30,820 nucleotides of DNA from a virus (Duplodnaviria; Caudoviricetes), in IMG/VR virus record IMGVR_UViG_3300049844_000026, positions 1 to 30,820 of that record. The stretch is one strand, 5' to 3'. Under the pieces are notes generated by a model. The model searched no databases. It saw only the letters and a program-made list of their open reading frames with translations, and was not told where the DNA came from. Position numbers and translations under genes: made by a program. Within the stretch, counting starts at the first letter, position 1, and each line of letters opens with the position of its first letter. Shown here one piece after another: positions 2,333 through 30,021 of the stretch.

Positions 2333-3173
2333 CGTCAATCTCCTTTTCAGCCCAAACTGGTAACGATAGATTTGTGATTTCTTTTGAGTAGCTTGGCCAC
2401 TCTTGCTTGCGATGACACTCAACAATCTTCGCAAGCTGTTCGCGGTAACGCTTGTGGCCGTAGTCGATCATCTTTGATGGCGCTGAGTACATAGCTGTAG
2501 CGTATGGCGCGTCTTTTTCTTGGCAAAAATACAGAAACGGTGGACGCTCTGCCGTCTTCCAGAATCGTTGCCACACATCACAGTAAAACGCTGCTTGGTA
2601 GTGGTAGTCGAGATTCCAATACGAACGGCCGAACTCGTGTGGTGACGCGTCCTGCGTTGTCTTGCCATCCAGAATCAATCCATTCGGAAACTGCTCGCAA
2701 GGCATGATGGCCAGATCTGGGCGAATCTTCAGCGTGAGAGATGTCTCTTCGTCGGTGATGAAGATTGAGTTTTCGATGATGCAGTTTTCGTGAGCGAGAA
2801 GCATTGACATAACTGGATGTTTGCTGGCCAGCTCTGCCATCTTCAGGATCTCGCGATACTCATCAGGCTTGAATGGCGTCTTTCCGCTGGCTTCAATCTC
2901 AGCGAAAAATGCTTTGCCTTCTTTGGTGCGACGATCAATGCCTTCTGGAACTTCGACGAAATCCTTACTGAAGTTTTCTGGCTCAAACAGAGCTGTGTGC
3001 CAAGCAGTTCCAGTGAGCATCGCTGCTGTTGCTTCTTTCTTTTCGCGCTCTGGATTCACGTAGGAATGGTAATAGTGGAGGGCTGATCTTTCCATTGCTT
3101 TGAAGTGGCTGCTTGAGATGCCATCCATCGCATGATATTCCTCGTTTGTGAGGGTTGTGGTGATGTAGTTCAC
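2325..3173 (-). CDS. PD-(D/E)XK exonuclease, RecE/exonuclease VIII-like (DUF3799)
   Basis: NEEYHA..GISSS, GTAWHTALFEP, KIRPD, ILDGKTT and YHYQAAFY motifs. Confidence 0.9.
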   Translation of the reverse strand: MNYITTTLTNEEYHAMDGISSSHFKAMERSALHYYHSYVNPEREKKEATAAMLTGTAWHTALFEPENFSKDFVEVPEGIDRRTKEGKAFFAEIEASGKTPFKPDEYREILKMAELASKHPVMSMLLAHENCIIENSIFITDEETSLTLKIRPDLAIMPCEQFPNGLILDGKTTQDASPHEFGRSYWNLDYHYQAAFYCDVWQRFWKTAERPPFLYFCQEKDAPYATAMYSAPSKMIDYGHKRYREQLAKIVECHRKQEWPSYSKEITNLSLPVWAEKEIDGV

Positions 3174-3203
3174 GACTTACTTTCGTTGTTGATGAGATTG
3201 CAG

Positions 3204-7190: not shown

Positions 7191-7379
7191 ATGCACTTAG
7201 ATGAAGCAATAAAACACTACAAAACACAGCGCAAGCTGGCCGAAGTTCTCGGTGTGTGCGAGCCTTGCATCAGCAATTGGCGCTCGCGAGGAAAGATCCC
7301 TGCAATGGCGCAGCTGAAGATTCAAAAACTCAGCCGTGGCAAATTGAAGGCCGACATCAATGTGTTTGGGGTGAAGTAA
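7191..7379 (+). CDS. Cro-like HTH transcriptional regulator
   Basis: 62 aa; TQRKLAEVLGVCEPCISNW..GKIP..AQLKIQKLSRGKLKAD is a typical Cro/YdaS pattern. Confidence 0.85.
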   Translation: MHLDEAIKHYKTQRKLAEVLGVCEPCISNWRSRGKIPAMAQLKIQKLSRGKLKADINVFGVK

Positions 7380-7423
7380 AGATCATAAATTGCAGTACAA
7401 TGAAAGTACTGCAAAGGAGTTTT

Positions 7424-7903
7424 ATGATTACAAAGTCAAGAGTGCTGGAGCTTTTCAATTATGTTGATGGTGTTCTCGTATATAAAAGCGACGGCCTTCG
7501 AAGGAGAGCTGGTCAAAAGGCCGGATGGAAAACTGACAATGGATACCTTCGCGTAGACATTGATGGTAAAAAATATTACGTCCATAGAGTCGTATGGGTT
7601 TACCACAACGGCGATTGTGGTGATTATCTGATAGATCATATAGATGGAGATAAGACAAATAATCAAATCTCAAATCTTCGTCTATCAAATAAATCTCTCA
7701 ATGGCTTCAACAGAAGAAAAGCAAGAAGCGACAGCGAAAGCAGCCTTATAGGAGTTCTATCTGGAAAAACAAAAAAAGGAACAAAAACATTTCAGGCTCG
7801 CATAACAATAAATGGCGTGCGAATTGGACTTGGAAACTACAAGAGCGCAGAAGAGGCGCACCTTGTCTATCTTGATGCAAAGAAAAAACTAATAAATTTT
7901 TAA
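7424..7903 (+). CDS. HNH homing endonuclease with C-terminal AP2-like domain
   Basis: AGGAG RBS before ATG 7424. HRVVWVYH, IDHIDGDKTNNQISNLR, then FQARITINGVRIGLGNYKSAEEAHLVY. Confidence 0.9.
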   Translation: MITKSRVLELFNYVDGVLVYKSDGLRRRAGQKAGWKTDNGYLRVDIDGKKYYVHRVVWVYHNGDCGDYLIDHIDGDKTNNQISNLRLSNKSLNGFNRRKARSDSESSLIGVLSGKTKKGTKTFQARITINGVRIGLGNYKSAEEAHLVYLDAKKKLINF

Positions 7904-13004: not shown

Positions 13005-13211
13005 TCACAGGCCGATCAGCTTCTTGAAGAATTCAGCAGCAGCACCAGGGCCTAGCAATACGGCAGCGAGAACCGCATAGATCAGATACTGCATCTTGTC
13101 CATGCGCTCTGCACCCTTATCAAGACGGTCGCTGATCGTTTCATAGCGTTGTGCGCACACGGCCTCGTGAGTATCGAGGCGAGCTTCAGTGACTGAAATC
13201 ATTTCCATCAT
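13005..13211 (-). CDS. Small coiled-coil plus TM protein (XhlA/holin-like)
   Basis: RLDTHEAVCAQRYETI...YLIYAVLAAVLLG; first gene of the membrane-protein cluster. Confidence 0.7.
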   Translation of the reverse strand: MMEMISVTEARLDTHEAVCAQRYETISDRLDKGAERMDKMQYLIYAVLAAVLLGPGAAAEFFKKLIGL

Positions 13212-13741
13212 TCAGCCTCGTCTGCTGGTTCAGGCGTGTTGCCTTGTGACAAAGCACGCTTTTTTGTTGCAGAGATTTTGCGCTTAGTTTCATCAGACAA
13301 TTTACGCCCCCTTTGTGCGTTTCCAACCTTGCACTTTGTCTCGGCTGAAAGTTTAGTTCCAAGTTTTGCTTGTCTCAGTTTCTCACGATGCTCTGGCGTA
13401 AAAGCTGGTCTGTTTGGTCGTTCAGCCATTTGCTTCTTAACCTGTTCAGAATAGTTTTCTCTTGCCTGTGCATACGTTGTTGAGTTGACCTTGCCATATT
13501 TACCCAAGTTGCTCATCATAAAGAAAGAGCGACCTGCAACACCACCACAAGCCTTCCAAAGCATCCAATGTGCAATGTAGTGTTGTCGTGGTGTCAACTT
13601 GATTAAATTGTCCTTATCATCAGAGCCGCCAAGACTGCGTGGCACGATGTGATGCATCTCGCAATATCCATCCACGGATTGACCTTTTAGGGCATCCATG
13701 AACCGCTGATAACGGCTGTAATGATGTTGGCTTTTAACCAT
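13208..13741 (-). CDS. HNH homing endonuclease with NUMOD3-like repeats
   Basis: EMHHIVPRSLGGSDDKDNLIKLTPRQHYIAHWML, then TPEHREKL, LSAETKCKV and LSDETKRKIS. Probable start at 13741. Confidence 0.9.
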   Translation of the reverse strand: MVKSQHHYSRYQRFMDALKGQSVDGYCEMHHIVPRSLGGSDDKDNLIKLTPRQHYIAHWMLWKACGGVAGRSFFMMSNLGKYGKVNSTTYAQARENYSEQVKKQMAERPNRPAFTPEHREKLRQAKLGTKLSAETKCKVGNAQRGRKLSDETKRKISATKKRALSQGNTPEPADEAE

Positions 13742-13955
13742 TTGGCAACAGCTTTGCAATTGTTTCAGTAGCCCATTCCTGAGTTACTGTGCCGCCTTCT
13801 TCTGCTGGCTCTGGAAGATTTCCTTCTTGAAGCCACTTAGCAAACTGCTGTGCATCTGTGTTGGCGGGGTCGAATGGGATGAAGGCGTTGTCTGCAACGC
13901 GCTCAATAGACAACGGGTTAACAGCACCTTCTGGTGTTTTCACAAGTTTATACAT
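13734..13955 (-). CDS. Small tail-fibre-associated protein (assembly chaperone-like)
   Basis: Directly after the fibre gene; IPFDPANTD..F..WL.EGN.PEPA motif. Confidence 0.75.
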   Translation of the reverse strand: MYKLVKTPEGAVNPLSIERVADNAFIPFDPANTDAQQFAKWLQEGNLPEPAEEGGTVTQEWATETIAKLLPNG

Positions 13956-22185: not shown

Positions 22186-22887
22186 TCACAACTTTACTCT
22201 TGGATATTTTTTACCAGTTCTAGATGCAGATATCTTTGCTCTAGTTTCATCGGAAACTATTCTTCCAATTGATGATTTTGATATTTTCGCCCTGTATTCA
22301 TCGCTAAGATTTTTCCCGAACAATGGATGATTTGATCCTAATTTTGATCTTGACATCTTTCTTCTTGATTCTTCAGAGAAAACTTTTCCCAAATGAGACT
22401 CAGACATCTTTCTTCTGGTTTTTTCGGATGCTTTTCTTCCCGTATTCTTTTTCGCAACCTTCTGAGAAATTTCCTTGCTCCTCATTGGATTAGCATCGCC
22501 CATCATTTTTTCTGACTTAGCCAATCTAACTTCTGGCCTTTTCGATACGTTTTTATCTCCCATCAATCTGTTCGATAAATTTTTTCTAGCTTCATCTGAC
22601 ATCTTCATTCCAGATGCGCCTTCTCCACCATCCGTAAGATTAACAAGAACACCTCCAAATTGACGCCTTCCATATTGCTTTATTAGTGAGGCTTCAACTC
22701 TAAATGCCTCGTCTTCTGACAAATGTTGAGAATGTATCTCAACATCAACACCATGTATTGATGCAACAGAAGCCCAAAATTTAGATCTTCTAGAAAAATC
22801 AACAGATCTATTTCCCCTGCCTTTTCCTACATAAAACACCTCTCCACTTGATTTTTTCTTGTGAAGATAGACGTAAAAATTGTTCAT
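22186..22887 (-). CDS. GIY-YIG-family homing endonuclease with NUMOD3-like repeats
   Basis: FYVY...FYVGKG..NR...EA...E..LI...NLTDGGEG, then repeated SEETRxKxS-type units. Visibly more AT-rich than its flanks. Confidence 0.9.
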   Translation of the reverse strand: MNNFYVYLHKKKSSGEVFYVGKGRGNRSVDFSRRSKFWASVASIHGVDVEIHSQHLSEDEAFRVEASLIKQYGRRQFGGVLVNLTDGGEGASGMKMSDEARKNLSNRLMGDKNVSKRPEVRLAKSEKMMGDANPMRSKEISQKVAKKNTGRKASEKTRRKMSESHLGKVFSEESRRKMSRSKLGSNHPLFGKNLSDEYRAKISKSSIGRIVSDETRAKISASRTGKKYPRVKL

Positions 22888-24848: not shown

Positions 24849-25172
24849 TCACATTCCCATATTGATTCGGTACGGATCAAGCAGCCACTTGATGCCAAGC
24901 GGAAGCTCAATCACGTTGCCGCCAGATTGCTGGGTCACAGACTCGCGATTTTCGTAGAGCGTGCCAACCTGAAGCAGCACAGCAGCTTTAACTGCGTCTG
25001 TCATCACCAATCCATCCAAGTCGCTGCCAATGCTGGATGCGTATAGATTTCGGTTCAAATAGCTTGATGCCGCCTGCTCGCAGCCGTCCAGATACATCTG
25101 AATCAGAGTGTCTTCGTCTGAATGATCTACGCGAAGATGAAGTTTGGCCGCAGCCAGCGTGATGATGCTCAT
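24849..25172 (-). CDS. Head-tail connector (HK97 gp6-like)
   Basis: AKLHLRVD..DED.LI, KAAVLL.VG.LYENRE, LLDPYR. Confidence 0.92.
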   Translation of the reverse strand: MSIITLAAAKLHLRVDHSDEDTLIQMYLDGCEQAASSYLNRNLYASSIGSDLDGLVMTDAVKAAVLLQVGTLYENRESVTQQSGGNVIELPLGIKWLLDPYRINMGM

Positions 25173-25783
25173 GGTCTTTCTTCCCAGCGTGCTTTAAATA
25201 CGCCTTGTGCAGTTTGGTTTCCAATGTTTGTGATCGAGATATAGTATGTACCAGCAGGCATACCAATTGGGTCTGAACTGCCGCCGGACACAGAATCGCT
25301 CTTGTTTCCACTGTTCACCTGAAACACATCGAGCAGGTTGCCACCAGTTACAACTCCGCCATTGTCCATGTCTACGTGCGTGACATACGAAAAGTCAACG
25401 TCTGACGTGTTATTCACCCGCATGACTGGAATGTCGTTGATGAACGGACTCGTGACAGTGCTTCCAGATCGAAGTTCAACCCTTACGCTTCCAGCCCAAT
25501 TGTCAACAAGAAAACTATTCAGGAAAACATCAACCGTGGTGATTGCACGGATGGCAATGCTGGAGCCAGTATTGATCAAATACTCGTGGAACGCTGAAAA
25601 CTCACGCCCAGCAAAAAATCCAGTCTGGCCAACGTCAACACGAACGCGAGCATACTGCCCATCTTCGTCCGTCATCAACTTTGCTGGCGGATAAGCCTCA
25701 ACGCGCTCGGCGTGCGTTCCATCCCCTCGGTCAACGAGGAGCTTCTTTAAGCCCTGCCAGAATGGGAAGTTCGTATTGCTCAT
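25169..25783 (-). CDS. Hypothetical beta-rich protein, probably virion-associated
   Basis: 204 aa in the head operon, ATGA-coupled to the connector gene. Function not assignable. Confidence 0.7.
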   Translation of the reverse strand: MSNTNFPFWQGLKKLLVDRGDGTHAERVEAYPPAKLMTDEDGQYARVRVDVGQTGFFAGREFSAFHEYLINTGSSIAIRAITTVDVFLNSFLVDNWAGSVRVELRSGSTVTSPFINDIPVMRVNNTSDVDFSYVTHVDMDNGGVVTGGNLLDVFQVNSGNKSDSVSGGSSDPIGMPAGTYYISITNIGNQTAQGVFKARWEERP

Positions 25784-25799: not shown

Positions 25800-26387
25800 T
25801 CAAAGCGCAGGAATCCAACTCTTTTTAACATCCCAAGGACGTGGATTTCCGTGGAAACAGATCACACTAGCTCCAGTTGGCACGGTTTTCAATGAATGCG
25901 CCTTGTAGCTGAATATCTTGTTTGGCAACTCAAGCTGCCAGCGCTTGCACGGCAAAACGTCACGCAAATAACCCTGATCACCCCAATACTCGCGGGTGAC
26001 GCAGCGTTTCATGTGCGCCTCTGGATTTTCTATCCAGTCAGACCAAACCCTGTCCTTATCGCTATTTTTGATCAGCATCAAGCCGGACGCAGGCAGGTGT
26101 GGCTTGTAAAAGTCGCTCAGCAATGTGGTGTGTTCAAGCGATTCGAGCTGCTCAATTCCACCCACGACAACCGTGTCCAAATCAAAAAACAGCAGGTCGT
26201 CCTCGATGTCCGGCCGAAACAGTTCCATCTTCGCCCACCAGCCTGGCCAATCGTGTTTAAGCCTGATCGTCGGCACACCATCGACATCGACATCAGACAG
26301 GCAAACCAAATCAGGAACCTGACGTGCAAGCCACTGGACGTGCTGCGGCCCGTATTCCTTGCCACTTCTCAAAACGCAGATTCTCAC
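25800..26387 (-). CDS. GT-A fold glycosyltransferase (GT8-like)
   Basis: WWAKMELF, DxD motif FFDLDTVV, GDQGYL and CFHGNPRPW. Confidence 0.85.
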   Translation of the reverse strand: MRICVLRSGKEYGPQHVQWLARQVPDLVCLSDVDVDGVPTIRLKHDWPGWWAKMELFRPDIEDDLLFFDLDTVVVGGIEQLESLEHTTLLSDFYKPHLPASGLMLIKNSDKDRVWSDWIENPEAHMKRCVTREYWGDQGYLRDVLPCKRWQLELPNKIFSYKAHSLKTVPTGASVICFHGNPRPWDVKKSWIPAL

Positions 26388-26983
26388 AGCAGATCCTCAA
26401 GATTTTGTCGTGGAAACATATCGAGCGCAGTCACCCTGCTTGCATTGATGATTTCAGCTTCAGGATGGTCGTCTCTGAGCTTCTGAAACAACGCAGGCCA
26501 CCTGTCTATCTGCCTCGCATTTGCAAGCCCTCTGGGGTGGTTTCCATGCCAATGAGCCTTGCCATCAGTGTGCTGGCAATCGAACCCAAGCATGATCACG
26601 CGAGCTGCATCGCCAAACAGCGCCAGAGACACGCCGCCAGCGCCAGAATTGCCATAAGCGTTGAACTTGGCTGGATTCAGGTATGTCGTCATGTACTTCG
26701 CTGGCAGATTGTTCGTGCAGAACCTCTGTCCAACGAAGTCACGGTTCACTTCATCGAGATGCAAAGACCACCAAGGCTCATCAAGAGCAAACAGAGCGTC
26801 AGCCCAAGGCGCAGCTCTGAATGTGGTGTTGGCGACGATTACTGCCTTTTGGCCTTGCGTCCAGTCTTGCTGGATTTCTTCTCTGGCTCGCCAGCTTCTG
26901 ACTCGCTCGATGTCTCCTCTGTTGAGGCTTGGCCCACTGGCAAGGACGACGACTGTTCCTCCTCGCCACCTTCCGCTAAAGGG
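26384..26983 (-). CDS. DUF115/MptE/Maf/CstII-like domain, expressed as a -1 frameshift extension of the upstream ORF
   Basis: The frame is open well upstream of the track's TTG (26764): FSGRWRGGTVVVLASGPSL...VIVANTTFRAAPWADALFALDEPWW...GNSG...ARVIMLGFDC...HWHG. No start codon precedes these motifs. Slippery CCCTTTA at 26977-26983. Confidence 0.75.
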   Translation of the reverse strand, partial: PFSGRWRGGTVVVLASGPSLNRGDIERVRSWRAREEIQQDWTQGQKAVIVANTTFRAAPWADALFALDEPWWSLHLDEVNRDFVGQRFCTNNLPAKYMTTYLNPAKFNAYGNSGAGGVSLALFGDAARVIMLGFDCQHTDGKAHWHGNHPRGLANARQIDRWPALFQKLRDDHPEAEIINASRVTALDMFPRQNLEDLL

Positions 26984-27138
26984 CGATCCATAGCCTCCTT
27001 GGTTTCCATGCGCACAGCTTCTCCGCGTTCGATGAGAAACAAACCGAGCTGATCAGCAACTTCAACTGGAACGCCAGCTGGAAGACGGCCATAGCCAACA
27101 GCCATGACTGGCTTTTTCGATGTAACTACGATTTTCAT
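26839..27138 (-). CDS. Small post-capsid protein (0-frame product)
   Basis: GGAG RBS. N-terminal GxxxEVxxxxxxxLIxxGxA domain followed by a low-complexity tail. Confidence 0.8.
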   Translation of the reverse strand: MKIVVTSKKPVMAVGYGRLPAGVPVEVADQLGLFLIERGEAVRMETKEAMDRPLAEGGEEEQSSSLPVGQASTEETSSESEAGEPEKKSSKTGRKAKRQ

Positions 27139-27148
27139 AATCTACTCC

Positions 27149-27174
27149 ATCACAAATGTGAAATCATTCTATCA
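27149..27174 (-). promoter_or_regulatory. Extended -10 promoter and operator for the post-capsid cassette
   Basis: Minus strand reads TGA-TAGAAT, then TTCACATTTGTGAT (27149-27162), then the GGAG RBS. Confidence 0.6.
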
Positions 27175-27176
27175 AT

Positions 27177-27203
27177 AAAAAAGCCCTCCGAAGAGGGCTT
27201 TTT
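27177..27203 (-). terminator. Intrinsic terminator after the major capsid gene
   Basis: GCCCTC-TTCG-GAGGGC (C-UUCG-G loop) flanked by A and T runs. Confidence 0.9.
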
Positions 27204-27215
27204 GATTCACAACTG

Positions 27216-28364
27216 TTAAGCTGTGAAGTTGCCATACAGCAAGCCAGCAGGACGCTCAACACCTAAGCCAAGGCGCTCTTCAGCGCGGATAGTGATCAGG
27301 TTGTTGGTGAAGTCTGCATTTTGATAGCCCATCTCGATGACTGCGCCGCTGCGGTTATACAACACGGCAGAAGTGCGCAATGCGCCGATCAAGAACTTAC
27401 CAGCTGTCATGTTGTTAGACAACACAACGTTCACGCCGAATGGGTTCATACCAGCGGCCATGCCAGGCATACCGTACAGGTACTCACCAGCGCCGCCAGT
27501 GTAAGTCTCGCGAGTACGCTCCAAAGCGCCCCAATCAGCTGGGTTCACAACCACAGTGTCAGGAGCATTGCCAGTTGCCCACAATGCGTACTTGGCGCGG
27601 TTGATTGCGTCGACCAGCAAGTCATCGCTGGTAGCTGTGTAAGCGGTAAAGTTGCCGCTGTCAGTCAAGCCAGACAAGTTGGGGCTAGTGCCGTTGCCGT
27701 TCAACAACTGAGCGTCGATGCGCTGGGCCAAGCCGTCACGCAAGCGAGTTTCAATGTAAGCCACAACAGCAGGAGCGTCAGCCAACAGCTGATTCGAAAT
27801 CTTTATCCAGTGTGCAACAGTGGTAATTGGCACGTTGTATTGCTCGAAAGTCACGTCAGACTCAGGCTTGGCGGCGCCTTGAGACACTTCAGCAGCAGAG
27901 TTTGTCCAGCTGGCTTCGCGCAATGCGTTGACCATGTTGGTAGACACTGTGATGCTTGTCAAGGCAGCACGGATGCTGGTTGGAGCAAAGTTGCCAGGGA
28001 TGATGCCAGGCTTCTGGTCTGGGAACACAGTTGTCGAACCAGAGGTGACAGTGTTTTTGACTTCAAAGCGAGCGCGTTGAGTGTTGCCAACAACGATCTG
28101 CTTGAATTGCTCAGACTTCACGAATTCTTCAGCAGCAGACAAAGGTTTAGCTTCGGCTTGCATACCAGCAGTTTGCTTTTGAGCCAACTCAACCATTTGT
28201 GCAGACAAAGATTTGAACTGCTCAGACAGTTCTTTCACTTCGCCTTTGACTTCGGTGTCAACGTTGCCTTTTTCTTTGAGCTGACCTTCGAATTTCTCGA
28301 TTGCAGCTTGCAATTTCACTTCTTGCTTGGCCAAGCCAGCTTCGATGATGTCTTTGAGTTCCAT
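27216..28364 (-). CDS. Major capsid protein, HK97 fold
   Basis: N-terminal coiled delta domain, VSQGAAKPES, AHWIKIS.QLLADAP, QLLNGNG, TIRAEERLGL.V.RP. Confidence 0.97.
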   Translation of the reverse strand: MELKDIIEAGLAKQEVKLQAAIEKFEGQLKEKGNVDTEVKGEVKELSEQFKSLSAQMVELAQKQTAGMQAEAKPLSAAEEFVKSEQFKQIVVGNTQRARFEVKNTVTSGSTTVFPDQKPGIIPGNFAPTSIRAALTSITVSTNMVNALREASWTNSAAEVSQGAAKPESDVTFEQYNVPITTVAHWIKISNQLLADAPAVVAYIETRLRDGLAQRIDAQLLNGNGTSPNLSGLTDSGNFTAYTATSDDLLVDAINRAKYALWATGNAPDTVVVNPADWGALERTRETYTGGAGEYLYGMPGMAAGMNPFGVNVVLSNNMTAGKFLIGALRTSAVLYNRSGAVIEMGYQNADFTNNLITIRAEERLGLGVERPAGLLYGNFTA

Positions 28365-29042: not shown

Positions 29043-29071
29043 ATTGTACGACCTCAGTGTAACAACAGCAA
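29043..29071 (-). promoter_or_regulatory. Putative promoter for protease and capsid
   Basis: TTGCTG-17 nt-TACAAT upstream of the protease gene. Confidence 0.45.
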
Positions 29072-29650
29072 CACATCGTTGCGCTTTCTTTTGGCTTTGC
29101 GAATCACTTCGTCAGCCAGCAATGGCCACGGTTGCCATTCCAAATCTTGCCTCTGCCGTCCACCCTGCGGAATTGCTGTTGGCTGAGGCTTCTGGCCAGA
29201 CGCCGAGAATTTGTCTGACGCCTCGGATGCAGATAGCAAGCCTTCAACCAGAACTTCTCCGGATGCAGACATGGAGTCAGATCCAGTCTCAGACGCATCG
29301 ATCAATCCGTCAATAAACGCAATCGCCTCAGACAGAAACTCATCAGATCCAGTCTCTGAGGCATTCAGTTCGCCAGACAGGAACGCGATGCCAGAAGCTG
29401 AAAGCGAATCCTCGCCAGTTTCTGACGCTTCGAGCGATCCCTGCGCCGTAATATCGCCAGCTGCGTAAAGCGTGTCTGCGCCTTCGGTGGCAGAAAATAG
29501 ACCAGAGGCGGGTAGCGCGAAGTATATTGGGGAGTCAAATACATCAACACCCTCGGCCTTTTGGTGAAAAAAGTAATACCAATTGGCTTGAACTATGCCA
29601 CCAAGGGAGGAGCCATCGCCCTCCAGTGCCGACATTGCTCCTGTTGTCAT
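29054..29650 (-). CDS. Acidic repeat protein (about 22-aa ASETGSD repeats), probably structural
   Basis: About five tandem units with 66-bp DNA periodicity. C-terminus KRKRNDVLLLLH. Confidence 0.75.
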   Translation of the reverse strand: MTTGAMSALEGDGSSLGGIVQANWYYFFHQKAEGVDVFDSPIYFALPASGLFSATEGADTLYAAGDITAQGSLEASETGEDSLSASGIAFLSGELNASETGSDEFLSEAIAFIDGLIDASETGSDSMSASGEVLVEGLLSASEASDKFSASGQKPQPTAIPQGGRQRQDLEWQPWPLLADEVIRKAKRKRNDVLLLLH

Positions 29651-30021
29651 GGTGCGTGCGTAATCGACGCGCTGTTGATTGTGATTGTCTGGCCAGCAGT
29701 GATTGTCACGCTGTCAAGATTGATGTCAGCGCCTGACGTACCAACGGTTAATCCGGTGATGATGTCGGTGCCATCGACTGCTGTGCGAATGCGTGCGGCA
29801 GCGGCCGTACCGCTGTTGTCGGCCGTTGTGTCAGACTTCGGAAAACCAGCAAACGTCATCACGCCAGATGCCACTGTAGCGGCTGGGTTATCAAGCGGAA
29901 TGACGGCCAGCACAGCGGCCATAGAGGCCGTGCCGATCTCAAGCACTGCCGTTGTACCCATAGCCGTCACAACGGCGTTCAAACGGGCATTTTTCACTGC
30001 GGTTGTGTATGTCACGGCCAT
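29647..30021 (-). CDS. Small Thr/Ala/Gly-rich beta protein, probably structural
   Basis: SGTAAAARI...GLTVGTSGADINLDSVTITAGQTITINS. Lies between portal and protease. Confidence 0.75.
   Translation of the reverse strand: MAVTYTTAVKNARLNAVVTAMGTTAVLEIGTASMAAVLAVIPLDNPAATVASGVMTFAGFPKSDTTADNSGTAAAARIRTAVDGTDIITGLTVGTSGADINLDSVTITAGQTITINSASITHAP

Follow-up and report, generated by a model that had tools for sequence, protein, structure and literature searches.

Directly downstream of the major capsid gene in an HK97-like phage operon, a 99-aa open reading frame (ORF) overlaps a −1 frame that encodes an enzyme-like domain and has no start codon ahead of that domain's N-terminal motifs. How would such an enzyme be made, and what would it do beside the head genes? 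The window, by which we mean the whole 30.8-kb virus record analysed, carries its morphogenesis operon on the minus strand. The operon starts with portal, protease and an HK97-type major capsid protein gene (27216-28364, −; phrog_10, E 1e-56), followed directly by the 99-aa ORF (26839-27138, −), the −1 frame and a second glycosyltransferase-like gene (25800-26387, −; phrog_1962, E 2e-65), which overlaps the stop of the −1 frame and sits in a variable glycan-enzyme cassette. It continues with an unknown gene (25169-25783, −; phrog_13935) between this cassette and the head-tail adaptor, and then with the adaptor, closure, neck, terminator, tail tube, tail chaperone and tape measure genes.

The tail chaperones have an ordinary G/GT site, G GGA AAC then TAA, at 21703-21694 (−), between Phage_TAC_4 and DUF1799. 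Four homing-endonuclease-like genes (HNH, NUMOD or GIY-YIG) are present at 1429-1869, 7256-7903, 13208-13759 and 22186-22887, one of them separating the tail tube gene from the chaperone genes. The C terminus of the portal carries a long extension, and between portal and protease (29054-29650 and 29647-30021, −) lie a 198-aa acidic repetitive ORF, without a PHROG or Pfam match, and a 124-aa virion protein (phrog_3758).

An enzyme frame lacking its own start

The −1 frame is open from 27052 to 26384, after a TGA at 27055-27053, and its first ATG, GTG or TTG is the TTG at 26764, which begins a 126-aa ORF. This TTG lies 73 codons into a 199-residue stretch starting at 26983 (26384-26983, −), a predicted Maf/GT42-fold domain. 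The original prediction treated the 126-aa ORF as only the C-terminal part of a domain, and the profile match bears this out: phrog_4603 covers residues 15-199 of the 199-aa frame (E 4e-46). The coordinates first proposed for the ORFs, the slippery heptamer, the Shine-Dalgarno (SD)-like motif and the stem all match the sequence.

The 99-aa ORF consists of a folded domain, a Ser/Glu-rich linker and a basic tail. The predicted slip codon, CCT, is its codon 53, with 46 codons remaining in the 0 frame, and a −1 shift there would give a 251-aa product in which the 53-aa N-terminal domain (26980-27138, −) is fused to the enzyme domain. At the junction the predicted slip site is a C_CCU tetramer, extended here to the heptamer C_CCU_UUA (26977-26983, −). 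Of 5685 codons in the long minus-strand ORFs of the window, 14 hold an in-frame XXXYYYZ and 8 a C_CCY.

By eye, the interval separating the capsid gene from the small gene shows a hairpin with a T run after it at 27203-27175 (−); this hairpin was not among the output of the terminator scan and could reduce expression of the putatively frameshifted gene. A promoter scan of 26300-27400 returned no sigma-70 promoter-like site.

The two-frame layout is conserved after the capsid gene

We fetched 218 homologous loci (219 with the window), anchored 211 on the ASGPS motif, dropping 8 without this anchor, and clustered the anchored loci at 80% identity into 123 clusters. We classed a cluster as two-frame if its upstream frame stayed open for a minimum of 35 codons ahead of the anchor and 15 codons past it. 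The layout persists among homologues, with a −1 overlap in 97 of the 123 clusters; in the other 26 the enzyme gene stands alone. Two mis-anchored two-frame clusters were dropped, leaving 95 for the analysis of the site. Two-frame examples include Pseudomonas phage D3 (orf6.5/orf7), Psp6 and S20, and the D3 orf7 annotation begins at an internal start, 114 nt past the start of the match. Stand-alone enzyme genes include PAJU2 ORF010, P1 pmgO and P7 hdmB. The capsid gene is the upstream neighbour in 86/90 two-frame loci vs 1/23 stand-alone loci, and hosts, where named, are mostly Proteobacteria. Our tree is a quick version in which 53/119 forks are open, so we make no claim about the order of events.

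Several loci depart from this layout in individual ways. In L192 (~3000-3200) the ASGPS-coding segment is duplicated inside the overlap and both frames are longer, and L175 (1327-2158) has a third arrangement, with a capsid gene, a small gene that has a basic tail to itself and a separate enzyme gene. An endonuclease VII-like gene replaces the capsid gene directly 5′ of the small gene in L052 and L119. Citrobacter phage phiNP (L024, 2956-3600) has a 200-aa Maf-like ORF beside its lysis genes, unannotated in the record. In P1 and P7 (L020/L021, 2941-4127) the adjacent 'morphogenesis' genes pmgO/pmgP and hdmB/hdmC both appear Maf/MptE-like, pmgP weakly.

A C_CCY tetramer marks the junction

We searched the enzyme frame for CCC at a distance of 12-18 codons ahead of the anchor and found C_CCN at the edge of the enzyme domain in 89/95 two-frame vs 2/26 stand-alone clusters (Fisher p 1e-17, a value that overstates independence because the clusters are related). 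The CCC lies exactly five codons before a conserved Trp in 82/89. Its fourth base is U in 62, C in 19, A in 5 and G in 3 of the 89, against a U/C background of ~40%, so that C_CCY accounts for 81/89. The codon that follows is free. A full heptamer, which had been proposed as the slippery element, is present in only 27/89 and does not hold as a family rule; the conserved element is the C_CCY tetramer. Within the clade to which the window belongs, 12/12 distinct sequences have the heptamer, and all five C_CCA cases, D3 included, read C_CCA_AAG.

Six clusters lack the CCC. By eye, these carry G_GGA_AAA (L176, L206), G_GGA_AAG (L211), U_UUU (L048) or an upstream C_CCU_UUG (L023), and Psp6 (L022) has no clear slip site at the expected position. 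An enzyme-frame stop falls within three codons before the CCC in 21/89 clusters and directly next to it in 4/89; because these stops reach the codon before the CCC, the shift would be confined to the five codons before the Trp.

These preferences can be set beside reporter measurements. In E. coli, according to the available part of PMC4066793, the tetramers A_AAG, U_UUY, C_CCY and A_AAA are shifty, at 0.26-5.6% with an IS3 pseudoknot 5 nt downstream; C_CCU and C_CCC are equally shifty, and C_CCA and C_CCG are weak. The same portion of that study gives C_CCA_AAG as the best heptamer (54%) and places C_CCU_UUA among the motifs active without stimulators. The base preferences of the phage family match this hierarchy, which argues for frameshifting.

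A predicted 3′ structure accompanies the tetramer

An SD-like AAGGAGG lies 10 nt 5′ of the slip site in this phage (26994-27000, −). As a rule for the family, the internal SD fails: 23/89 clusters have the motif, with no excess over synonymous shuffles and a hybridisation energy p of 0.25, and the wider motif set of PMC4066793 gives 28/84, again with no excess. The motif largely tracks a TK(V/E) peptide. It is a clade-level feature, with the SD-like AAGGAG and the hairpin both kept in 12/12 distinct sequences of the window's clade.

The stem of this phage begins 8 nt after the heptamer and pairs TGGCGAGGA (26968-26960) with TCCTTGCCA (26946-26938), giving 9 bp with one G-U. This hairpin (26938-26968, −) is predicted by RNAfold but is modest alone (z −1.67; 13/200 shuffles fold as well). 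It corresponds to the upper part of a stem, S1, which joins the codons of a conserved Arg-Trp to those of Ala-Ser-Gly. Across 84 two-frame clusters, the 5/89 without the Trp codon being left out, S1 pairs at 9.2/11 positions vs 6.8 +/- 0.16 in synonymous shuffles; the figure for 17 stand-alone clusters is 6.2/11. The most common start of S1 is 5 nt after the tetramer in tetramer-only loci (26/58) and 8 nt after it in heptamer loci (10/26; Fisher p 0.0003, again with related clusters), so both modes lie 5 nt after the last slipping codon.

A second pairing, S2, joins the loop to a downstream GCAGAC and makes the structure a candidate H-type pseudoknot. Its 6-bp core is perfect in 58/89 clusters, in two registers one codon apart, and in 0/26 stand-alone clusters; 16.9 +/- 3.6 are expected in synonymous shuffles. 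In this phage both elements are degenerate, with 7/11 pairs in the lower stem and 5/6 in the S2 core. RNAalifold on two alignments of 43 sequences recovered neither S1 nor S2, giving only a weak 4-bp alternative, and compensatory changes are few (9 cells in 6/19 pairs, equal to a slide-of--3 control). Both arms of the stem are dual-coding, and selection on 0-frame amino acids (Ser, Gln-Thr) could therefore explain part of the codon bias.

Judged from sequence, the family signal is a predicted C_CCY tetramer followed by a 3′ stem or pseudoknot and is closer to IS3 than to dnaX. Like the IS3 elements in the available part of PMC4066793, it would pair a Z_ZZN motif with a predicted structure that starts 5 nt later. 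A_AAG, U_UUY and A_AAA make up most of the IS tetramers described there; in the phage family C_CCY prevails. The site of this phage itself resembles the heptamer-SD-hairpin arrangement of IS911 and dnaX, although, unlike in those systems, the SD is not family-wide. With heptamer, hairpin and AAGGAG in all 12 clade sequences, a dnaX-type reading may be right for this phage, and we infer that its clade uses that arrangement on top of the family tetramer. The dnaX-style signal originally predicted therefore stands for the window's clade and not for the family, in which the heptamer is a minority form and the SD is not enriched.

A programmed frameshift probably accounts for the overlap

Four homologues encode the two domains in a single frame. 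These in-frame fusions (P0034, P0040, P0139 and P0140; 244-247 aa; from Logan, ENA and JGI) share 76% identity or more across the junction region and probably represent a single lineage; the small domain of P0034 is matched by hhalign at 98% probability. In each of them a Pro lies five residues ahead of the Trp. The next residue differs in all four (M, V, Q and R, respectively), which indicates that no conserved internal start is present. The expectation of two products sharing a 53-aa domain, the longer a −1 fusion to a glycosyltransferase-fold domain, is thus supported both by the layout of the 97 clusters and by the junction register of the in-frame fusions, which is the same.

The enzyme might be translated separately, from a non-AUG codon or from the internal TTG as the 126-aa form, with the overlap incidental. 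Database products are indeed called at 121-137 aa and ~155 aa, and 46/89 clusters have a canonical or near-cognate codon upstream, 13 of them with an SD-like motif. The other 43/89 have no such codon, stops abut the CCC in several loci, and only 7/89 two-frame clusters have a canonical start in the 50 codons preceding the ASG motif. Internal starts would also remove the first core strand together with the invariant S16-G17-P18-S19, N52 and D68, and separate initiation leaves the C_CCY, the substitute slippery motifs and the in-frame fusions unexplained. We regard it as very improbable.

Still harder to credit is that the two frames reflect an assembly error, a decayed fusion gene or transcriptional slippage. 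The existence of in-frame fusions speaks for such readings. Yet contigs from four runs over 26300-27300, of which run X1 may be the source sample, are free of indels from 26839 to 27052; one of them, from run X6, covers 26670-27114 with 13 substitutions and zero gaps. The overlap is common to 170/211 anchored loci, and changes in the −1 frame are third-position-biased (81/122 variable columns). Transcriptional slippage was ruled out on the absence of long homopolymers: the longest run near the site is 3-4 nt in 82/89 clusters and never exceeds 6. A start-less enzyme frame that recurs over the same overlap in ~95 lineages suggests that the ribosome slips back one base, and from these sequence patterns a programmed −1 ribosomal frameshift at this locus is very likely.

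The shared domain may resemble gpFI in fold

The 53-aa domain was modelled with an AlphaFold pLDDT of 82 and has a GINS-B/L9-N/gpFI-CTD-like predicted fold (DUF7210/DUF7302). In VIA comparisons it scored Z 6.2 to 5ghr, 5.3 to YqbF (2hjq) and 4.6 to the C-terminal domain of lambda gpFI (2lsm; rmsd 2.1 over 44 residues), the last being below the GINS and L9 matches. A PDB sequence search with the small domain reached at best E 0.12 (GINS, 3anw), and Foldseek returned no match at E <= 0.001 in PDB or BFVD. Pfam assigned DUF7210 to 22 of 83 small-domain members; the only families found in the 83 were DUF7210 and DUF7302, with no FI-family match. A wider search gave 666 relatives at E <= 0.001, and nearly all of the 150 listed are small proteins.

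Past the slip site, the 0-frame tail is 34-51 aa long in 87/88 homologous clusters, a length partly built into the two-frame definition, which requires 15 codons past the anchor. At least 5 K/R stand among its last 18 residues in 75/88 clusters, and 37/88 contain [RK]GR[PK], which we take to be an AT-hook-like motif. In 5/26 stand-alone loci a small gene bearing a separate basic tail is still visible, and the short form therefore seems to have its own job.

The gene for gpFI sits right after the capsid gene. The phage small protein is likewise small and carries a domain whose modelled fold is similar, and it differs in having no sequence match to gpFI and in placing that domain at its N terminus. 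We know of no frameshift or enzyme fusion for gpFI. On the modelled structure, the likeness is at the level of fold only, a fold also found in GINS-B and L9-N. By analogy, the short form may act in packaging or head assembly; gpFI bridges the capsid and the terminase-DNA complex, according to the available part of PMC13595911.

The extension is probably a sugar transferase

The enzyme model has a pLDDT of 94, and its closest fold is Maf (5mu5; VIA Z 16.4, rmsd 2.8 over 174 residues). The alignment spans residues 265-510 of the 632-residue Maf chain, its central domain, at 16% identity, and the 199-aa domain lacks the flanking helical domains of full-length Maf. Next come HPPK (8sd5, second at Z 12.0), SteA, Cst-I/II and sialyltransferases. 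The predicted model thus shares its fold, a modified GT-A fold, with Maf (PF01973) and GT42 Cst-II, and it departs from Maf in comprising the central domain only. PF01973 matches 60 of 73 homologues at E <= 0.05, the window's own protein being without a match, and searching PDB sequences with the enzyme alignment gave no match below E 0.3. In the family, D68 and D135 do not vary; they could be the counterparts of the catalytic acids E324 and D415 of Maf.

The same fold is used by nucleotide enzymes of the MptE/thiamine-pyrophosphokinase type, to which the HPPK match, thiamine pyrophosphokinases at Z 7-8.6 and the Pfam family name, MptE-like, would point. Maf nevertheless scores higher, Cst-I/II and sialyltransferases match too, and the neighbouring genes encode glycan enzymes, which makes a nucleotide enzyme improbable. 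Among 60 hand-picked downstream ORFs (58 of 109 extracted plus 2 from D3), the 37 tested against Pfam gave 8 glycosyltransferase-type and 8 methyltransferase matches. Neighbour types include GT2, GT4, GT-D, TOD1/MUCI70-like, nucleotide-sugar transferase, methyltransferase and radical SAM, and 8/94 loci have a second Maf-like gene. We consider the enzyme domain probably to be a sugar transferase. A point against the overall explanation is that its P1 homologue pmgO is non-essential, according to the available part of PMC10695390; pmgO is unmentioned in the main text of PMC9024508.

Relation to known frameshifts

The lambda-type tail chaperone G/GT makes two products that share an N-terminal domain through a −1 site conserved in position across siphophages. 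The present system is similar in its shared N-terminal domain, its second frame without a start and a site conserved by position, and differs in its head module, its enzyme-fold extension, its ~46-codon overlap, its basic 0-frame tail and its use mainly of a C_CCY tetramer. Frameshifts in phage structural genes are thus known, and besides G/GT they include −1 shifts in the capsid genes of T3, T7, Lactobacillus A2 and Listeria A118/A500 (PMC5009743, in its available part). Those too are head-module −1 shifts that add a C-terminal domain, but, as far as that source goes, they extend the major capsid protein (with an Ig-like domain in T3 and A2), whereas here a small accessory protein would gain a transferase.

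Literature searches, with most subscription papers outside their reach, found no description of this frameshift. Term searches of PMC3711429, one supplement apart, and of PMC10885494 yielded no such case, and the cluster could be listed in that supplement or in those of PMC4066793. Tentatively, and at somewhat less than even odds, we propose an undescribed, widespread recoding signal in the head module of HK97-like phages (C_CCY plus pseudoknot, with the D3 heptamer as a variant), through which a gpFI-like chaperone doubles as the targeting domain of a Maf-type glycosyltransferase.

A proposed model for head-directed glycosylation

In the proposed mechanism, the stem or pseudoknot would stall the ribosome and tRNA-Pro would re-pair from CCU or CCC to CCC; in this phage C_CCU_UUA may allow tandem slippage of the Leu tRNA as well, with the SD assisting. 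The majority of ribosomes would stay in frame and make the 99-aa gpFI-like packaging or head-assembly helper with its basic, probably DNA-binding tail, and the minority that shift would make the 251-aa enzyme fusion. The shared domain would stand in for the acceptor-binding domains of full-length Maf and carry the enzyme to the prohead. There the enzyme may attach the first sugar to a head protein's Ser/Thr, and the transferases and methyltransferases encoded nearby would then lengthen the glycan. CMP-Kdo is generally available in Gram-negative hosts, and a CMP-sugar of this kind would be the likely donor. Maf enzymes move Neu5Ac and Kdo onto Ser/Thr (10.1101/2020.06.03.131540, in its available part).

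That the shared domain tethers the enzyme to the head is plausible from its modelled fold and gene position; the 26 clusters with a stand-alone enzyme indicate that tethering is not obligatory. Head-directed glycosylation is the most likely purpose, though we give only even odds that a head or virion protein is the target. Precedent exists in mycobacteriophages, whose phage-encoded transferases decorate the capsid and tail tube (Freeman 2023, cited in the available part of PMC12619734); the hosts there are different, and here the enzyme would be a frameshift fusion, found mostly in phages of Proteobacteria where the host is named.

With the frameshift real, the target could also lie elsewhere: in the linker of the short form itself, in a protein of the neck or of packaging, in DNA or in a glycan of the host. 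The linker of the short form is indeed Ser/Thr-rich, stand-alone copies mostly follow head-tail adaptor or closure genes (14/23), the P1 copy is far from the capsid gene, and DNA and host serotype are other targets of phage glycosyltransferases (PMC12619734, available part). This is the less likely alternative given that the two-frame form follows the capsid gene so regularly, that the nearest fold is a protein O-glycosyltransferase and that PAJU2 ORF010 is annotated 'structural protein'. Taken as a whole, a frameshift giving a short form and an enzyme fusion for head-directed glycosylation is the best explanation of the locus, with a probability of roughly three in four.

Under the broader and less probable proposal of a widespread recoding signal, many Gram-negative phage capsids would carry Kdo or nonulosonic sugars, and the slip rate would determine how heavily. 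Alongside G/GT and the capsid extensions, the locus would count as one more conserved phage frameshift. It would also supply a natural family built mainly on C_CCY, which has been assayed in reporters yet has little prominence in IS elements. The annotations of D3 orf7 and of many truncated database proteins would need correcting. D3 is a culturable phage in which head-directed glycosylation could be tested, offering a route to testing virion glycosylation in Gram-negative phages that bears on antibody recognition of therapeutic phages.
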